Shown here in pieces: positions 1,396 to 14,792 of a DNA stretch of 18,184 bases. The DNA comes from Candidatus Woesearchaeota archaeon. GTDB taxonomy: Archaea > Nanobdellota > Nanobdellia > SCGC-AAA011-G17 > GW2011-AR20. The first letter of the stretch is position 1; each line of letters starts with the position of its first letter. Location of the stretch: the NCBI GenBank assembly GCA_018303005.1, contig JAGVYY010000044.1:1-18184 (forward strand), given 5' to 3'. The notes under the pieces were generated by a model. That model saw nothing but the letters and a program-made list of their open reading frames with translations, searched no databases and was not told the DNA's origin. The translations under genes were made by a program, and so were the position numbers.

Positions 1396-2769
1396 ATGGC
1401 TTATGAATTCAGATTTCCAGATGTTGGAGAAGGAATTACAGAAGGTAGTATAGTCAAATGGAGGGTTAAAGAAGGCTCTAACATAAAAAAAGACCAGGTA
1501 ATTGCTGAGATTGAAACAGACAAGGCTGTTGCTGAAATTCCAAGTCCTGTTGCAGGCAAGGTCTTAAAAATTAGATTCAAGGAAGGAGAAACCATAAAAG
1601 TTGGAGAGGTTTTGATAATAATAGATGATGGGTCTGCTGCAAATGCTGGAAAAAAAGAGACTGATGAAAGCAATGAATTTGTCAAGGAACAGCAAAAGAA
1701 CAATGCTAAAGACATTAAAGAGATAAAGACAACAGCAAAAGCCCAAAAAATTAAAAAATCTGTAGGTGTTGTTGGAGAATTAGAAGAAGACAATGGGAAA
1801 ACTCATTCTAGTATAAGCTCTAGGGTTGATATTGAAACACCTAAAATTAGAGTGACATTGTTTGTCAGAAAATTAGCCCAGGCATTAAATGTTGATATCT
1901 CAAAAATAAAGGGAACTGGAAACAACGGACTGATAACTGAAGATGATGTCAAGAATGCTGTCCAGCCAGGAAACTTGCAAGGTTCCATTGAAAGAAATAT
2001 CCCAGATGACCAAAATGCTGAACCTGATACAAACAAAGAGAAGACAAATGAAGTCAAACCAGTCAGAAAATACGACATGTTTGGATATATAGACAGGGTT
2101 CTGTTAAAAGGTATAAGAAAGATAACAGCAAAACACATGATTGAATCTGAGAATAAGGCTGTCCATGTCACACATATTGATGAGGCTGATATCAGCAACC
2201 TAGATAATATAAGAGAAAGAGAAAAAATAAATGCTGAGAAAAAAGGAACCAAACTGACATTTCTGCCATATGTCATGAAAGCCTGTGTTGATGCTCTGAA
2301 GAAGCATCCTTACCTGAATGCTTCAATTGATGAAGAGAACAATGACATTCTGCTGAAGAAGTATTATAACATTGGGTTTGCTGTTGACACAGAAGATGGG
2401 TTGATTGTACCTGTGATGAAAGGAGCTGACCAGAAAAATGTATTTGACATTGCAAAAGAAATCGGAAACCTAAGTGAACAAGCCAGAACGAGAAAGATAG
2501 ATTTATTTGACCTAAAGGGAGGGACATTCACAATAACCAACATAGGTTCTATTGGAGGATTATATGCCACCCCAATAATAAACTTCCCTGAATCTGCTAT
2601 CTTGGGATTAGGAAGAGCTTATGATAAGCCTGTTGTTGTAAATGGAAAGATCGAGATTAGAAAAGTATTACCTTTTTCACTGTCATTTGACCATAGGATT
2701 CTGGATGGAGCAGAGGCTGCAAGATTTGCCAATGACATGAAAAAAGTTTTAGAAGAAGCTAATTTTTAG
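1396..2769 (+). CDS. 2-oxoacid dehydrogenase complex E2 component (dihydrolipoamide acyltransferase)
   Basis: N-terminal lipoyl domain with IETDKA lipoyl-lysine motif. Peripheral-subunit-binding domain (VRKLAQALNVDISKIKGTGNNGLITEDDV). C-terminal catalytic domain with the DHRILDG active-site motif. Confidence 0.9.
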   Translation: MAYEFRFPDVGEGITEGSIVKWRVKEGSNIKKDQVIAEIETDKAVAEIPSPVAGKVLKIRFKEGETIKVGEVLIIIDDGSAANAGKKETDESNEFVKEQQKNNAKDIKEIKTTAKAQKIKKSVGVVGELEEDNGKTHSSISSRVDIETPKIRVTLFVRKLAQALNVDISKIKGTGNNGLITEDDVKNAVQPGNLQGSIERNIPDDQNAEPDTNKEKTNEVKPVRKYDMFGYIDRVLLKGIRKITAKHMIESENKAVHVTHIDEADISNLDNIREREKINAEKKGTKLTFLPYVMKACVDALKKHPYLNASIDEENNDILLKKYYNIGFAVDTEDGLIVPVMKGADQKNVFDIAKEIGNLSEQARTRKIDLFDLKGGTFTITNIGSIGGLYATPIINFPESAILGLGRAYDKPVVVNGKIEIRKVLPFSLSFDHRILDGAEAARFANDMKKVLEEANF

Positions 2770-3849
2770 GCTTTTATAAATTTTTATATACTTGTTTATT
2801 TCAATATTAGATATCTCACTTGGGAACATTTCTTTAAATTCTTTAGAAAATTTTCTTCTTAATCTATATGTATTACTGTATTTTGCATATCCTAACCATC
2901 CTTCAACGCTAGAATAAATTTTATCATAATCAATTCCATTATTATCAAATTTCTTTTTAAATATTAAAAGTTGTCTTTGCATTTTATTTATATTGCTTTT
3001 CTTCAACAATTTATGATAATAAAAAACTCTAAAACCCGGTAGACCTACTCCTTTATTTAAAAGGATAATCTTAGATTTATCAGGATGTAACTCTAATTTT
3101 ATTGCTTTTAATAATTCATTGATTTTATTTTTATAATCAAATAGAATTAATTTACTATAATCCAATATCACAAAATCATCAACATATCTTATATAATATT
3201 TTGCTCTTAATTCGTGTTTAACAAACCGATTGAGTTCATTTAAATAAATGTTAGCAAAGAACTGAGAAGTTAAATTCCCTAGAGGCATACCTTTATTTTT
3301 TTCTTTAAAATAATAGTTTTCTAAAATTATTTTTATTAACCATATTACTCTGTTATCTTTTATCTTTCTTTTAATAAGATTCAATAAAACTTCATGATTA
3401 ACAGTTTCAAAGTAATGTTTAATATCTGGTTTCAGTACATATACCTTCTTAGTATTATTATGACTTATTTTTCTTTTAAAACAATCAAATCTTTTTAAAG
3501 CTTTTAATGTTCCTTTATCTTTTCTATTAGCATAAGAATCATAAATAAAAGTTTTATCAAGTATTGGTTCTAGGATATTAACTAAAGCATGATGAACTAC
3601 CCGATCTCTAAATTTTGATTTGCTTATCTTTCTAGTTTTTGGATCTTTAATAATAAATGTTTTTAATGGATTTGGCTTGTAAGTATAAAATAATAATTCA
3701 TATCTTAATTGCAGCAAATTATCTTCTAAATTATTCTCAAATTCAAGAACATAATATTTTAGAGTTTTATGTTTTCTTGCTTTTTTAAAAGCTAGCTCTA
3801 AGTTTTCATAATTACATAGATCATTCCATAAATTTTTATAGGTCTTCAT
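2749..3849 (-). CDS. DGR-type reverse transcriptase
   Basis: YVDD catalytic box (YIRYVDDFVIL). Motif 4 is PLGNLTSQFFANIYL, matching the DGR hallmark [LIV]GxxxSQ rather than the group II intron QGxxxSP. The N-terminus (FENL..AFKKARKHK..., IKDPKTRKIS..FRDRVVHHAL) is typical of DGR RTs. A TR lies immediately upstream on the same strand. Confidence 0.85.
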   Translation of the reverse strand: MKTYKNLWNDLCNYENLELAFKKARKHKTLKYYVLEFENNLEDNLLQLRYELLFYTYKPNPLKTFIIKDPKTRKISKSKFRDRVVHHALVNILEPILDKTFIYDSYANRKDKGTLKALKRFDCFKRKISHNNTKKVYVLKPDIKHYFETVNHEVLLNLIKRKIKDNRVIWLIKIILENYYFKEKNKGMPLGNLTSQFFANIYLNELNRFVKHELRAKYYIRYVDDFVILDYSKLILFDYKNKINELLKAIKLELHPDKSKIILLNKGVGLPGFRVFYYHKLLKKSNINKMQRQLLIFKKKFDNNGIDYDKIYSSVEGWLGYAKYSNTYRLRRKFSKEFKEMFPSEISNIEINKYIKIYKSLKISFF

Positions 3850-3880
3850 TAATATTGGCTTGACATTTACCTGGATTATT

Positions 3881-3962
3881 CCAACGAAACGCCCATTGTT
3901 GTTGAGATTGTTGTTGTCATTAAGACCATTGTTGTAGTTGTTGCCAAGATACAGCAGGCGCC
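3881..3962 (-). repeat. DGR template repeat (TR), non-coding
   Basis: The minus strand reads CGCCTGCTG TAT CTT GGC AAC AAC TAC AAC AAT GGT CTT AAT GAC AAC AAC AAT CTC AAC AAC AAT GGG CGT TTC GTT GG. There are 11 AAY codons in the VR frame. It is homologous to 4284-4362 and sits 31 nt upstream of the RT start. Confidence 0.7.
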
Positions 3963-4153
3963 ACCGAGTAGCTCTTTCACTTTAAAAAGCACTGCTACTT
4001 TATCTTTCATTTCTTACTAGATGTTATAACTGTATTTCACAACCATCAATTAAAATGGTCATAGCAAAAGAGCATGTAACCCAGACAATACTCCAACTTT
4101 GCTAATTGAATAATGTCAAGGTAAAATAAAAAAGAAATAATTGATATAAAAGA

Positions 4154-4868
4154 TTATTGGTGTAATGATCTTAATCTTGCTTCGTATTCTTCTCTTGCTA
4201 TCTGAGGAACAAAATCCTCTGAAATCTTTAATATTTGCTCTAAGCAGGGGTGTAAAATTTTTTGCGGGACGTCATCGCGTACCCCGACGAAACGCCCATT
4301 ATTGTTGATGCAGTTGATGCCATCAAGGCCATTAATATCGTAGATGAGGTACACTAGGCGTCCTAATGGCTGTTCACGTAAATCATCAGAATGCCAAATT
4401 CCTATTTGATCACCATAAACTTCTTCATGTCTTTCCAAATATCTTTGAGCTCTTTCTTCTCCACCTAAAAAAGGTATTGTTTGTGGATGTTTTAGAGCTC
4501 TTTTGACAGGAATTATTCCAGATTTAGAGTTCTTTAATTCTTCATAATCTACTACAAAAACTAATTTATTTCCTTGTTGATCTTTAATCCCTTCAAGATC
4601 AACTAATCTTTGAAATTCTTCCTGTGGTATTATCCCAGCATAATTTACTAATCTGTTTTCTTCAATAGTTTTCCTTATATTTCCATGATCAGAAAAATAA
4701 TTATCAACATGACCATAAACAACAACAGGATTTCCTTGCCTTGTTATTCCAGTTGCTCTAATGCTTGGAGATGTAAACCAGGTTTGCCATATTCTTGAAC
4801 CTTTATCAGAAAAATTCTTTTCCTTCTAAATACCTTGTTACAGGAACTTTTATTATTTCGTTTGACAT
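4154..4868 (-). pseudogene. DGR target (variable) protein gene, interrupted by a 1-nt frameshift in an A4/T5 run near 4806-4822
   Basis: ATG at 4868 gives MSNEIIKVPVTRYLEGKEFF then a stop at 4806-4808. The adjacent frame is open with no stop from 4825 to 4154: KEKNFSDKGSRIWQTWFTSPSIRATGITRQGNPVVVYGHVDNYF...LVYLIYDINGLDGINCINNNGRFVGVRDD...RSLHQ. The ORF track only reports the last 94 aa, from a TTG at 4438. Removing one T from the TTTTT run restores a 237-aa ORF. Confidence 0.6.
4284..4362 (-). repeat. DGR variable repeat (VR) inside the target gene
   Basis: Hand alignment to the TR uses a +403 offset on the plus strand. The 3' block is identical (AATGGGCGTTTCGT). TR AAY codons are replaced by ATC, TAC, GAT, ATT, GGC, TGC and others, encoding YLIYDINGLDGINCINNNGRFVG. 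Confidence 0.6.
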
Positions 4869-4923
4869 TTTTGATCTTCTTTATTTTCTAAATCTTGTTA
4901 TAATATTAGATATTTGCTTATTT

Positions 4924-4960
4924 ATAAAACTTTCTATTTTTACTATTTTAGAGTAGATAT
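4924..4960 (-). promoter_or_regulatory. Conserved promoter/operator module, copy B (upstream of DGR target gene)
   Basis: The minus strand reads ATATCTACTCTAAAATAGTAAAAATAGAAAGTTTTAT(AAA). It is 34/37 identical to 1309-1345. The BRE/TATA-like end lies about 53 nt upstream of the ATG at 4868. It overlaps the last codons of the HAD gene. Confidence 0.5.
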
Positions 4961-5541
4961 TTATTTAGCTCATAAATTAGTTCCTTGTATCCTGTAAAAA
5001 CAATACCTTTAATGCCGAGCTCATTGGCCACTAAGACATTTTCTTCCCTGTCATCAATGAAAATACATTCTTCTGGTTTTAGCTTTGATTTTTTCAGAAC
5101 ATAATCATAGATTTTTTTGTCTGGCTTGGCCATCTTGATTTCATTAGATAGGTATACCTTATCAAAAATAGAATAAAGGCCTCTCTTGTAATTAATTTCA
5201 GCATGCACTGGATTTGCATTTGACAGGACTATAAGTGAATATTTCATCTGCTTCAATCTTTTGATTAACATCACTATATCATTGTTTATTGTTTTTTGCA
5301 TGTATATCTCTTTCCAGTATCTTGCTAGCATATTCTTATTGATGCTTAGCTCATCTGCAATTCTTTTTATGAATTCATCTTCTGTGATTTCTCCGATCTT
5401 GGCCCGGTTCATATGCTTGTCTTTTGCAGCAATAAACAGTTTAGGGTTTATGTTGAATCTTTTTGCTATCTCTTCATATTGCAGTGATATAGATTCATTG
5501 AAAAGAACCCCGCCAATATCAAAGATTATGGCTTTTATCAT
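4948..5541 (-). CDS. HAD-superfamily hydrolase (subfamily IA-like phosphatase)
   Basis: Motif I is IIFDIGGVL (DxG variant of DxDG). Motif II is VLSNA. Motif III/IV is K...FIDDREENV. Length of 197 aa is typical. Confidence 0.8.
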   Translation of the reverse strand: MIKAIIFDIGGVLFNESISLQYEEIAKRFNINPKLFIAAKDKHMNRAKIGEITEDEFIKRIADELSINKNMLARYWKEIYMQKTINNDIVMLIKRLKQMKYSLIVLSNANPVHAEINYKRGLYSIFDKVYLSNEIKMAKPDKKIYDYVLKKSKLKPEECIFIDDREENVLVANELGIKGIVFTGYKELIYELNKYLL

Positions 5542-8668: not shown

Positions 8669-8754
8669 CAAGATAACAAAGAGGATATGTTTATAAATAT
8701 GGTGTTCTTGCAATACCACAATACTTTATATATATTAACTATTCTAAAGTGGTT

Positions 8755-9147
8755 ATGGATAATAATTCAATTTTTGAGGCTGGAATAAGAATAGGTTGGA
8801 TAGAGAGTTTCTATAAAACTGTAACAGAAAAAAGTACAGGATTTTTAATAAAAGCAAGAGAAAAACAATTTAACCCTATTGGTGCAGTGTTACTCTCCGG
8901 AGATTACGGAAGCCCAGAAAAGTTTATGCATAAAGCTGAAGCCTATAAATATCAATTGTTACATGCATATCAAGAATATCACTCTATTAAACAAGAATTC
9001 TCTAACTTAGCTTATTTTAATAATGAGGCGGCTAACACGTTTAGATTAGAATTAGAACATCAAAACGGTTTATCTACCATTGATGAAGCAATCTCTGTGT
9101 TAAATGGATATCTAGAAACTGAACGTTCTAGCCAGAAGCGTGTTTAA
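8755..9147 (+). CDS. Hypothetical protein (about 130 aa), first gene of a two-gene operon divergent from TrmB
   Basis: A TTTATATATA box at 8725-8734 lies about 25 nt before the ATG at 8755, suggesting a leaderless transcript. The stop overlaps the next start (TAATG). No family recognised. Confidence 0.5.
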   Translation: MDNNSIFEAGIRIGWIESFYKTVTEKSTGFLIKAREKQFNPIGAVLLSGDYGSPEKFMHKAEAYKYQLLHAYQEYHSIKQEFSNLAYFNNEAANTFRLELEHQNGLSTIDEAISVLNGYLETERSSQKRV

Positions 9148-13946: not shown

Positions 13947-14792
13947 GGTGATTGAAGCATTTTAGCACCAAAAAAGCTTATAATTAAGCTAAACTACGAC
14001 GATTGTAATGAAAAAAGAGTTGTCAGACATGTATTTTTTAGGTAGAAAATGCATAATTTGTAATAGATATGGATTGTACAAATTAAAGAATAGAAGAAGG
14101 GTTAAGTGTAAACACTGCAAGAAGTATTATTCACTAAAAAGGTTAAGAAGAGATCTAGATATTTTATATTACTTCTATCTTGAAGTCTCTGCTAGAAAAA
14201 CAGCTAAAGAAATGGAATTGGATTATGGAGTAGTTCATAGGAGGTTTATGGAATTTAGAAAGCTTATTGCAAACTACTGTAATGAACAAGCAATAAGGTT
14301 AAATGGAAAGATTGAGTTAGATGAAACTTACTTTGGTGGAAAGAGAAAGGGAAAAAGAGGTAGAGGTTCTAAGAATAAAGCTATTGCCTTTGGAATTCTC
14401 GAGAGAAAAGGCAAGGTTTACACTGTTATCATAGAAAATGTTTCAGCAGAAACATTAATGCGGGAAATACAAAATAAAACTAGGAAAGGCTCTGTATTTT
14501 ATACAGATGGTTTTAAGAGTTATGCTAGTTTAAGGCAATATGGAAAGCATGATACTATTGATTATGATTATAGTTATGTAAAAGGTAAAACACATATTAA
14601 TGGAATAGAAGGCTTTTGGAGTTACTCTAAAGAAAGGTTCCATAAGTATCATGGCATTAACAAAAAGAACTATCCATTGTATCTAAAAGAAATGGAATTT
14701 AGGTTTAATAACAGAAAGGAAAATGTTTTAAAGTTATTAGTTGATATATGTATAAGGAGGCGTAGAATTAGTGCCAAATTGCACTAATCACC
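13947..14792 (+). mobile_element. IS1595-family insertion sequence (about 846 bp)
   Basis: Imperfect terminal inverted repeats: GGTGATTGAAGCATTTTAGCAC (13947-13968) and the reverse complement of GTGCCAAATTGCACTAATCACC (14771-14792), about 17/22 matching. They bracket a single transposase ORF whose stop lies inside the right IR. Confidence 0.7.
14008..14787 (+). CDS. IS1595-family (ISXO2-like DDE) transposase
   Basis: N-terminal zinc ribbon (CIIC...CKHC). IELDETYFGG, KRGRG, KAIAFGILER.GKVY, YTDGFKSY and HINGIEGFWSYSKERF..YHGI....YPLYLKEMEFRFNNR are hallmark IS1595 DDE motifs. Confidence 0.85.
   Translation: MKKELSDMYFLGRKCIICNRYGLYKLKNRRRVKCKHCKKYYSLKRLRRDLDILYYFYLEVSARKTAKEMELDYGVVHRRFMEFRKLIANYCNEQAIRLNGKIELDETYFGGKRKGKRGRGSKNKAIAFGILERKGKVYTVIIENVSAETLMREIQNKTRKGSVFYTDGFKSYASLRQYGKHDTIDYDYSYVKGKTHINGIEGFWSYSKERFHKYHGINKKNYPLYLKEMEFRFNNRKENVLKLLVDICIRRRRISAKLH

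Follow-up and report, generated by a model that had tools for sequence, protein, structure and literature searches.

The window analysed here, an 18,184-nt stretch of contig JAGVYY010000044.1 with a GC content of 31%, derives from a metagenome-assembled genome (MAG) of Ca. Woesearchaeota (DPANN; locus-tag prefix J4214) and contains a diversity-generating retroelement (DGR). All features of the element lie on the minus strand, in the order target gene, template repeat (TR) and reverse transcriptase (RT) gene. The RT gene (2749..3849) is intact and codes for a protein of 366 aa. The TR (3881..3961; RLLYLGNNYNNGLNDNNNLNNNGRFVG) consists of 27 codons, 11 of which are of the AAY type, and ends about 30 nt upstream of the ATG of the RT gene. 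The variable repeat beside it, designated VR-A (4284..4361; RLVYL-IYDINGLDGINCINNNGRFVG), comprises 26 codons, lies 403 nt upstream of the TR and was identified by alignment to the TR. As described below, TR and VR-A probably represent a non-cognate, frozen pair in a mosaic, partly decaying DGR, in which RT and TR are intact and canonical.

The RT was identified by its match to Pfam RVT_1 (E=4.9e-21) and by its motifs LGNLTSQFFAN and YVDD, which sit in columns that are invariant in an alignment of the window RT with 29 relatives. The (I/L)GxxxSQ motif, which replaces the QG motif of group II introns, is diagnostic of DGR RTs. In the same alignment, the window RT retains all 66 invariant columns and deviates at 5 of the 135 columns with at least 90% conservation, the range for the relatives being 1-9. 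Judged by these counts, the RT is not decayed. NCBIfam is without a DGR-specific model and is usable only to exclude group II introns, retrons and defence-associated reverse transcriptases (DRT); the window RT stayed below the cut-offs, with 151 bits vs 300 for the group II intron model and likewise for the retron and DRT models. Thousands of relatives with 60-70% identity to the window RT are present in DPANN.

For the target protein, no Pfam or NCBIfam match was obtained. Its 142 homologues, about 260 aa long, come from Woesearchaeota, Pacearchaeota and Nanoarchaeota (proteins and loci fetched for comparison are given below as P and L numbers). For the intact sibling protein P0001, a phmmer comparison with AvpA (5IOO_A) gave E=2e-81, and its AlphaFold model, with a predicted local distance difference test score (pLDDT) of 92, matched 5IOO_A in Foldseek with E=5.9e-30, a target TM-score of 0.95 and 58% identity. 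In the window, the main open frame of the AvpA-like target gene, whose protein has a C-type lectin fold, spans 4154..4825 without an ATG, GTG or TTG start before 4438, and VR-A is located about 45 codons before its stop. An N-terminal fragment in another reading frame (4806..4868; MSNEIIKVPVTRYLEGKEFF, followed by a stop) aligns with the N-terminus of the intact 268-aa homologues. Compared to its siblings, the window gene lacks 92 nt, by which 31 codons are lost and the frame is shifted; the junction lies at 4811..4814, relative to L002 8059-8150. Because of this deletion, only an open reading frame (ORF) of 94 aa is annotated by NCBI in the target region (MBS3134539.1, J4214_04885, P0121).

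An intact 268-aa target gene is present in L002, L005, L006, L092, L093 and L094, while in L091 the N-terminal region is intact and the gene is truncated at codon 249 by an insertion element, and in L095 the contig ends within the gene. At the site of the 92-nt deletion, P0127 carries a different, in-frame deletion of 30 codons, and it is precisely at this point that the MAG contig harbouring a second copy of the gene (P0128) begins. The site may be a deletion hotspot, or two near-identical copies may have collapsed in the assembly, and the 92-nt deletion itself may be an assembly artefact rather than real.

Both repeats carry the ends known from DGRs of this kind, which are named after the initiation of mutagenic homing (IMH). 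The TR ends with the IMH*-like sequence TGGAATA (3877..3883), matching the TGGAAT IMH* motif of Nanoarchaeota DGRs (PMC4372165), and VR-A ends with the IMH-like sequence CGGGGTA (4280..4286). In the family, the VRs end with (T/C)GGGGTA, the base preceding GGGG being C or T throughout, and the motif given in PMC4372165 is TGGGGT. With VR-A ending ...GTCGGGGTAC and the TR ending ...GTTGGAATAA, both the IMH and the IMH* motif of AvpA-type DGRs are present. A gene for Avd was sought among ORFs of at least 60 aa between target and RT, of which there are none; the only ORF there codes for 44 aa and overlaps the TR, and none of the 8 window proteins scanned gave an Avd-like Pfam match. Since canonical relatives show the same compact target-RT layout as the window, Avd may not be part of the layout of the AvpA-type DGR family. 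On the basis of the AvpA homology, the RT and the end motifs described for Nanoarchaeota DGRs, the element is classified as an AvpA-type archaeal DGR, here in the chromosome of a DPANN archaeon (Woesearchaeota), and thus as a DGR of a known kind.

The minus-strand TR (3879-3980) and VR-A (4282-4380) were compared by global alignment. In the initial annotation of this DNA, eight mismatches at TR adenines and ten at other bases had been counted by hand. All of them were recovered, at 3941, 3939, 3932, 3921, 3917, 3914, 3909 and 3908 for the adenines and at 3955, 3954, 3949, 3936, 3934, 3931, 3925, 3907, 3906 and 3898 for the non-adenine positions, and two further non-A mismatches were found at 3883 and 3961. 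The A-to-G differences at 3880/3879 represent the family-wide end motifs GGAATA (TR) and GGGGTA (VR) and not mutagenesis. A 3-nt gap is also present at 3944-3946, where an extra codon of the TR had been reported; as the TR has the canonical length of 27 codons, the gap is better read as a deletion in VR-A. The minus-strand bases at 3944-3946 are T, G and G (CT[TGG]C to CTC), and the reported GGC codon corresponds to 3943-3945, an equivalent placement of the same gap.

An exact alignment of this kind had been proposed as the check on the hand count, and the mismatches are still not confined to TR adenines. Even when TR-adenine mismatches were made cost-free, 8 A and 12 non-A mismatches remained together with one codon gap. 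The mismatch rate is 8/26 at A sites and 11/52 at non-A sites, with adenines not being enriched (Fisher p=0.41), and the non-A divergence between TR and VR-A amounts to 21%. As had been remarked before, third-position transitions are frequent, with 8 of 11 non-A mismatches belonging to this class (hypergeometric p=0.066), a marginal test in that non-A sites in an AAY-rich TR are mostly third positions anyway; 25 of the 26 TR adenines are at codon position 1 or 2. The relationship between the two repeats is nevertheless clear, with a local score of 34 vs 7.4 +/- 1.3 (maximum 14) in 2000 shuffles, and, the TR itself aside, nothing in the whole window matches the TR better than VR-A. No further VR-like site was found in the window, and no match to the TR with differences at adenines only was found in the window, in 21 kb round a sibling locus or in any fetched locus. 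Length, ends and position of the TR agree with those of TRs from canonical loci of the family. VR-A, for its part, contains an L-to-V exchange at a column with at least 90% conservation in the family and is devoid of a conserved G of the family.

To place these numbers, 80 loci encoding members of the family were fetched and each was searched for repeat pairs. In 24 distinct loci, a VR-TR pair was identified with a distance of 385-482 nt, the same 27-codon unit and the same ends GGAATA/GGGGTA. Here, 282 of the 293 TR/VR mismatches fall at TR adenines, and the number of non-A mismatches per pair is 0-2, compared to 12 and a codon gap for the pair in the window. By this measure, the TR/VR-A pair of the window is a true outlier in its family. 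The codon indel was rejected as a sign of inactivity or decay, since six otherwise A-specific relatives carry a single codon indel; indels of 3n nucleotides between TR and VR have also been reported for some DGR lineages (Wu et al. 2018, PMC5758913). A positive control for copying is provided by L021 and L027, two loci with 93% identity overall, whose sole non-A TR difference is mirrored in the VR of each. Another degenerate type of DGR is present in the family in L025/L026 (4887-4969), where the repeat in the TR position is without AAY codons (GTGTACTACTACCACTGCGGCGTTGATGGC...) and has kept the TR-type end (GTAATAACC), so that it is a template resembling a variable repeat. On Ga0209542_10000092 (L015, L023, L030), a metagenome contig of 226 kb, three AvpA-family genes are located within 37 kb; multi-copy target families therefore do occur in a single DPANN genome.

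The DGR locus recurs at 97-99.9% identity in eight assemblies from several samples, namely L002/L092, L005, L006/L093, L091, L094, L095 and the window itself. The comparison with such siblings, as had been recommended, showed that TR and VR-A are invariant in all eight, the bases being identical in the window and in L002, L005, L006, L091, L092, L093, L094 and L095. On the protein level, the VR-A peptide is identical in 7 of 8 members of the 90% protein cluster, and the sole change is at a non-A site. At the level of the assembled consensus, nothing points to ongoing diversification. With 282 of 293 mismatches A-specific in the relatives and with TR and VR-A invariant in eight assemblies, the core of the initial annotation, namely that this is not a currently working adenine-only TR/VR pair, holds.

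In the same MAG, the target gene is present a second time (P0128, J4214_02755), at a different locus, where the gene order is OTCase, L15e, DHH, PAP2, a 662-aa protein and then the gene copy, and where no RT was found within 8 kb. The variable repeat of this copy, designated VR-B, was read at the DNA level from the sibling contigs L001, L003, L004 and L011. VR-B is the same in these four contigs, and its peptide is identical in 14 of 14 cluster members. The two gene copies share about 600 nt. From about 20 nt before the ATG until shortly after the stop, they are about 99% identical, except for one sharp island of divergence, whose start is 1 nt into the TR homology and whose end precedes the IMH. 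In the DGR-linked copy, the VR-A island is about 85 nt away from sequence unique to the DGR locus, with the family-like C-terminus FVPQIAREEYEARLRSLHQ.

The number of non-A mismatches was used to compare the repeats with each other. VR-A has 12 to its own TR and 15-25 to unrelated TRs of the family, and the TR has 8-18 to unrelated family VRs, so that VR-A with 12 is no closer to the TR than these. VR-B has 4 non-A mismatches to the window TR, compared to 11-19 to unrelated TRs. At the 5' end, 29 nt are identical between TR and VR-B, while VR-A shows five non-A events in this region, including the 3-nt deletion and the L-to-V exchange. Further differences between VR-B and the TR are seven changes at A sites and two indels, an insertion of 3 nt and a deletion of 6 nt in the AAC run. 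At 3898 and 3883, VR-A and VR-B share a base that differs from the TR; these are therefore most simply changes in the TR. These comparisons indicate that VR-A is not now, and may never have been, a product of the present TR, and that the lineage of the TR is apparently that of VR-B.

A cognate partner for either repeat was also sought further afield. Among all fetched loci, a search for TRs compatible with VR-A or VR-B (each base being the VR base or A, with up to 4-6 substitutions) gave only self-matches, and the same was true for a regular-expression search for VRs compatible with the TR. The adenine-wild-carded TR gave no match in JGI metagenome contigs or IMG/VR, a result that is uninformative about a remote target, as not even the TR itself was recovered and the collections therefore do not contain this genome. 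In GTDB genomes, it gave four chance matches in bacteria (e.g. Streptomyces and Synechococcus), which are uninformative for the same reason.

The gene of VR-B is not intact either. A 763-nt element has inserted into copy B at codon 249, with a target duplication of 9 bp and inverted repeats of 13 bp. The terminal inverted repeats are perfect (GGTAAAGTCAACT), the target duplication is CAGAGGATT, and the element contains frameshifted fragments of a transposase. It was located at L003 8749-9512 and L091 1193-1955, and also in L001, L011 and L004 (partial). In L091, an assembly of low coverage, the element is found in the DGR-linked copy, which may be an assembly chimera.

A sequence difference between the two copies is also seen 3' of the IMH. 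In Nanoarchaeota DGRs, GC-rich hairpins with a GRA loop are located inside the target gene just downstream of the IMH (PMC4372165), and in the Bordetella phage BPP-1, a hairpin/cruciform downstream of the VR is needed for efficient homing (PMC3240598; PMC4372165). Most canonical relatives of the window locus contain a GC stem of 4-7 bp with a GAA loop, 11-18 nt after GGGGTA, for example GCGCC-GAA-GGCGC. At the corresponding place after VR-A, no defined hairpin was found (z = -0.14). Only a remnant is present (4264..4279; CGCGATGACGTCCCGC), which is broken by G4270 and C4267. VR-B has kept a 5-bp stem with a TGACT loop (CGCGA-TGACT-TCGCG), and the difference between the two copies consists of two substitutions in the 3' arm, G4270 (T in VR-B) and C4267 (G in VR-B).

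A sharp island of divergence in the VR, between copies that are about 99% identical on both sides, fits poorly with plain drift in situ. Given a non-A divergence of 21% in the VR and about 1% in the flanks, either the flanks are being homogenised by gene conversion between old paralogues or the VRs come from different templates; on either account, the TR now beside VR-A is not its template. Under the reading preferred here as probable, that of a frozen, non-cognate pair in a mosaic DGR, different states or lineages of the template would have given rise to VR-A and VR-B, and that VR-A now lies beside the TR would be the mosaic outcome of recombination, or of gene conversion, between DGR modules or diverged copies; a recombinant RT, described below, is present in the same population. 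VR-A would then have stayed frozen because the hairpin 3' of the IMH was destroyed by the two substitutions, leaving the complementary DNA (cDNA) of the TR unable to home. The TR may have serviced VR-B last and would have changed since then at 3898 and 3883, and VR-B would now be frozen as well, in a gene interrupted by the 763-nt element. If the assembly is right, the adjacent target gene in the window was presumably disabled further by the 92-nt frameshifting deletion. So understood, the locus is a DGR part-way through decay, and not a case of unusual mutational chemistry.

Several observations weigh against this reading. With four non-A mismatches, a 3-nt insertion and a 6-nt deletion, VR-B is no clean product of the TR, and an A-only VR may lie elsewhere in the genome, beyond the window and the fetched loci that were searched. 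The framework deviations of VR-A, i.e. the L-to-V exchange and the loss of the conserved G, fit local decay better than the product of another functional TR. The invariance was established on assemblies, which are consensus sequences in which VR variants of low frequency would not show. Mosaic haplotypes would agree with gene conversion, provided that they are real, but in part they may be assembly chimeras of two near-identical copies; the coverage of L091 is only 1.9x. In addition, the A-specific relatives L015 and L081 lack a GRA-loop hairpin, and loss of the hairpin is thus only a plausible cause of freezing.

In the initial annotation, three readings had been offered for the non-A differences, namely a VR that has drifted as a fossil, a TR that has drifted, and an old paralogous target with the cognate VR elsewhere. 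The first two combined amount to a simple decay in situ, in which the DGR died and VR-A and TR drifted apart by ordinary point mutation. Derived changes are indeed present on both sides, with the codon deletion, the L-to-V exchange and the broken hairpin for VR-A and with at least two changes, 3898 and 3883, for the TR, although each of the two readings explains only part of the pattern. The frameshift in the window target gene, the insertion element in the paralogous copy and the lack of VR variation between assemblies likewise speak for it. The divergence is distributed in a different way, however, with 21% at non-A sites inside the VR and about 1% between the gene copies on either side, and the enzyme and the template do not show the same wear: the RT has all 66 invariant columns and is no more deviant than its relatives, and the TR has kept 11 AAY codons and canonical ends. 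That 8 of 11 non-A differences are synonymous-type third-position transitions suggests that the repeats diverged under coding constraint and not once the element was dead, with p only 0.066. Simple decay would be rescued only if gene conversion had homogenised the flanks of old paralogues, and it is regarded as rather unlikely. Of the three readings, that of an old paralogous target comes closest, in that VR-B is the VR nearest to the TR, with 4 vs 12 non-A mismatches. In its strong form, the DGR would be active on a remote target, the adjacent gene would have been abandoned, and the RT would be kept by selection for the remote work. Intact RT and TR would be accounted for in this way, remote targets are known for chromosomal DGRs (PMC5758913), and the VR nearest to the TR does belong to another copy of the gene, at a remote site in the same MAG. 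Yet VR-B carries two indels as well as 4 non-A mismatches and is not A-only. Neither the 14 cluster members nor the four contigs from different samples show any variation in it, the insertion element cuts its gene short, and an A-only match to the TR is missing from the window, from the 21 kb round a sibling locus and from every fetched locus. Current activity on a remote target is for these reasons judged to be distinctly improbable.

Two further explanations concern the mutagenesis and the assembly. A DGR that is active on VR-A with relaxed, non-adenine-specific and indel-prone mutagenesis, as suggested for some DGRs of the Candidate Phyla Radiation (CPR) and of lineage 4, would find precedent in non-A-to-N differences in 23% of DGRs and in 3n indels in some lineages (Wu et al. 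2018, PMC5758913), and codon indels are common in this AvpA-type family. Relatives with RTs of 60-70% identity are 96% A-specific, however, VR-A is invariant in eight assemblies, adenines are unenriched among the mismatches (p=0.41), and most of the non-A differences are silent third-position transitions, useless for diversification; relaxed mutagenesis is accordingly given very little credence. Even less is given to an assembly artefact, by which VR-A beside TR and RT would be a chimeric join of two near-identical gene copies. Copies sharing about 600 nt at roughly 99% identity invite such joins, mosaic contigs do exist (P0124, P0136, L091), and the deletion in the window gene is suspicious for lying where the other copy of the MAG starts its contig. 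The arrangement of VR-A with TR and RT was nonetheless found in eight assemblies from different assemblers, and the VR-A island is only about 85 nt away from locus-unique sequence (C-terminus FVPQIAREEYEARLRSLHQ).

A more specific version of the mosaic is that VR-A was written by a different template, either by cross-homing of cDNA from a same-family DGR in the cell or by a swap of the TR-RT module between lineages. This is proposed tentatively and is thought unlikely. It is raised because the divergence island coincides with the TR homology to within 1 nt, because the silent-site divergence of the island is typical of distant family members, and because a recombinant RT was found in the same population. 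This RT variant of 349 aa is present in L005 (1797-2846) and L091 (2328-3377). Through residue 229 it equals the window RT except for N207D, and it continues with a strongly diverged, foreign C-terminal third; the switch point lies just after the YVDD motif. For a ratio of nonsynonymous to synonymous substitution rates (dN/dS) between the window RT and the L005 variant, residues 1-229 offer a single change, and the remainder is the foreign segment. The variant shows recombination between DGR modules or RT lineages in the same population. If VR-A was written by a different template, targets and templates of DPANN DGRs would be exchangeable parts, and non-adenine TR/VR mismatches would record exchanges instead of sloppy reverse transcription or simple decay.

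Genes in the neighbourhood of the DGR code for a HAD hydrolase, the E2 component of a 2-oxoacid dehydrogenase, Hjc, TrmB and Orc1/Cdc6. Together with the GC content of 31%, they point to the chromosome of a DPANN archaeon. A second, different DGR adjoins the first beyond the left end of the window (L002 11829-16807, L092 3676-9737), and positions 1-1131 of the window (minus strand) represent the 5' part of the AAA_5 ATPase gene of its cassette. The order in this cassette is AAA_5 ATPase, a 264-aa target, a 587-aa protein, a second 264-aa target, TR2 and an RT of 384 aa, which belongs to the same RT family as the window RT. The cassette lies within a 2-oxoacid dehydrogenase cluster, with the E1 gene on one side and the E2 gene on the other. 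Its two targets show VR differences from TR2 that are mostly at adenines, with 9/11 and 5/6. The neighbouring DGR was considered as the supplier of a template for VR-A and was rejected, as its TR is unrelated in sequence.

Two other features of the window were recorded. A gene for an IS1595-family DDE transposase of 259 aa is located at 14008-14787 (+), with its annotation drawn from L006, a sibling locus (PF12762). Three copies of an intergenic repeat of about 45 nt (TTATWTATAAARCTTTCTATTTTWACTATTTTAKAGTAGATAT), with 78-91% identity to each other, are located at 1303-1351, 4918-4966 and 8731-8762; the repeat may be a shared promoter or regulatory motif.

In surveys of DGRs, pairs with more than a couple of non-adenine mismatches are usually dropped, so that the end states of DGRs are poorly described. 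The window locus represents a concrete end state of this kind, in which enzyme and template are intact and two copies of the target are present, neither of which is being rewritten; the homing hairpin is broken in one and an insertion element is present in the other, accompanied by signs of recombination between modules. For annotation, it cautions that a DGR-like RT beside an AAY-rich repeat does not make the neighbouring gene hypervariable. What is known about the working of DGRs is left unchanged by this locus.

AvpA-type DGRs, non-A mismatches, 3n indels and non-adjacent targets have all been described before (PMC4372165; PMC5758913). The closest known systems are the Nanoarchaeota (DUSEL4) DGRs with AvpA (Paul et al. 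2015, PMC4372165; Handa 2016, PDB 5IOO), a protein that has its C-type lectin fold in common with the target at 58% identity. Shared with these DGRs (PMC4372165) are also the order of target, TR and RT, the TGGGGT-like IMH and the TGGAAT IMH*, the AAY-rich TR, the location of the hairpin region inside the target gene and the lack of an obvious Avd gene between target and RT. In contrast to them, the window pair has 12 non-A mismatches in 81 nt, compared to a limit of 2 per 100 bp in that study (PMC4372165), and VR-A is without a GRA-loop hairpin and invariant between samples, in a target gene that is frameshifted. With the DGR of Bordetella phage BPP-1 (Mtd/TR/Brt), the prototype for the mechanism, the window element has in common the (I/L)GxxxSQ motif of the RT, the position of the TR upstream of the RT, the IMH/IMH* ends, and a VR near the C-terminal end of a protein with the C-type lectin fold. 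It differs from BPP-1 in being archaeal and chromosomal, with no Avd found and no sign of current homing, and in that its VR lies about 45 codons before the stop and not at the extreme C-terminus. Remote-target DGRs of the Treponema and Legionella type (PMC5758913) resemble the situation of VR-B, a second copy at a distant locus which shares the IMH region and is the nearest match of the TR; the accepted remote targets are A-only, whereas VR-B has 4 non-A mismatches, two indels and an interrupted gene. A parallel for the mismatches is provided by Wu et al. 2018 (PMC5758913), who reported non-A-to-N differences in 23% of DGRs; the highest count for a single target was 11, which is of the same order as in the window pair. 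Their ANKO01000117.1_3531_4562 also has a target with many non-A-to-N differences and an indel beside a better-fitting target. While these authors leaned to an 'additional mutagenic capability', the pair in the window is argued here to be frozen and non-cognate, because it is invariant in the population, its non-A differences follow a silent third-position pattern, and its relatives are A-specific.

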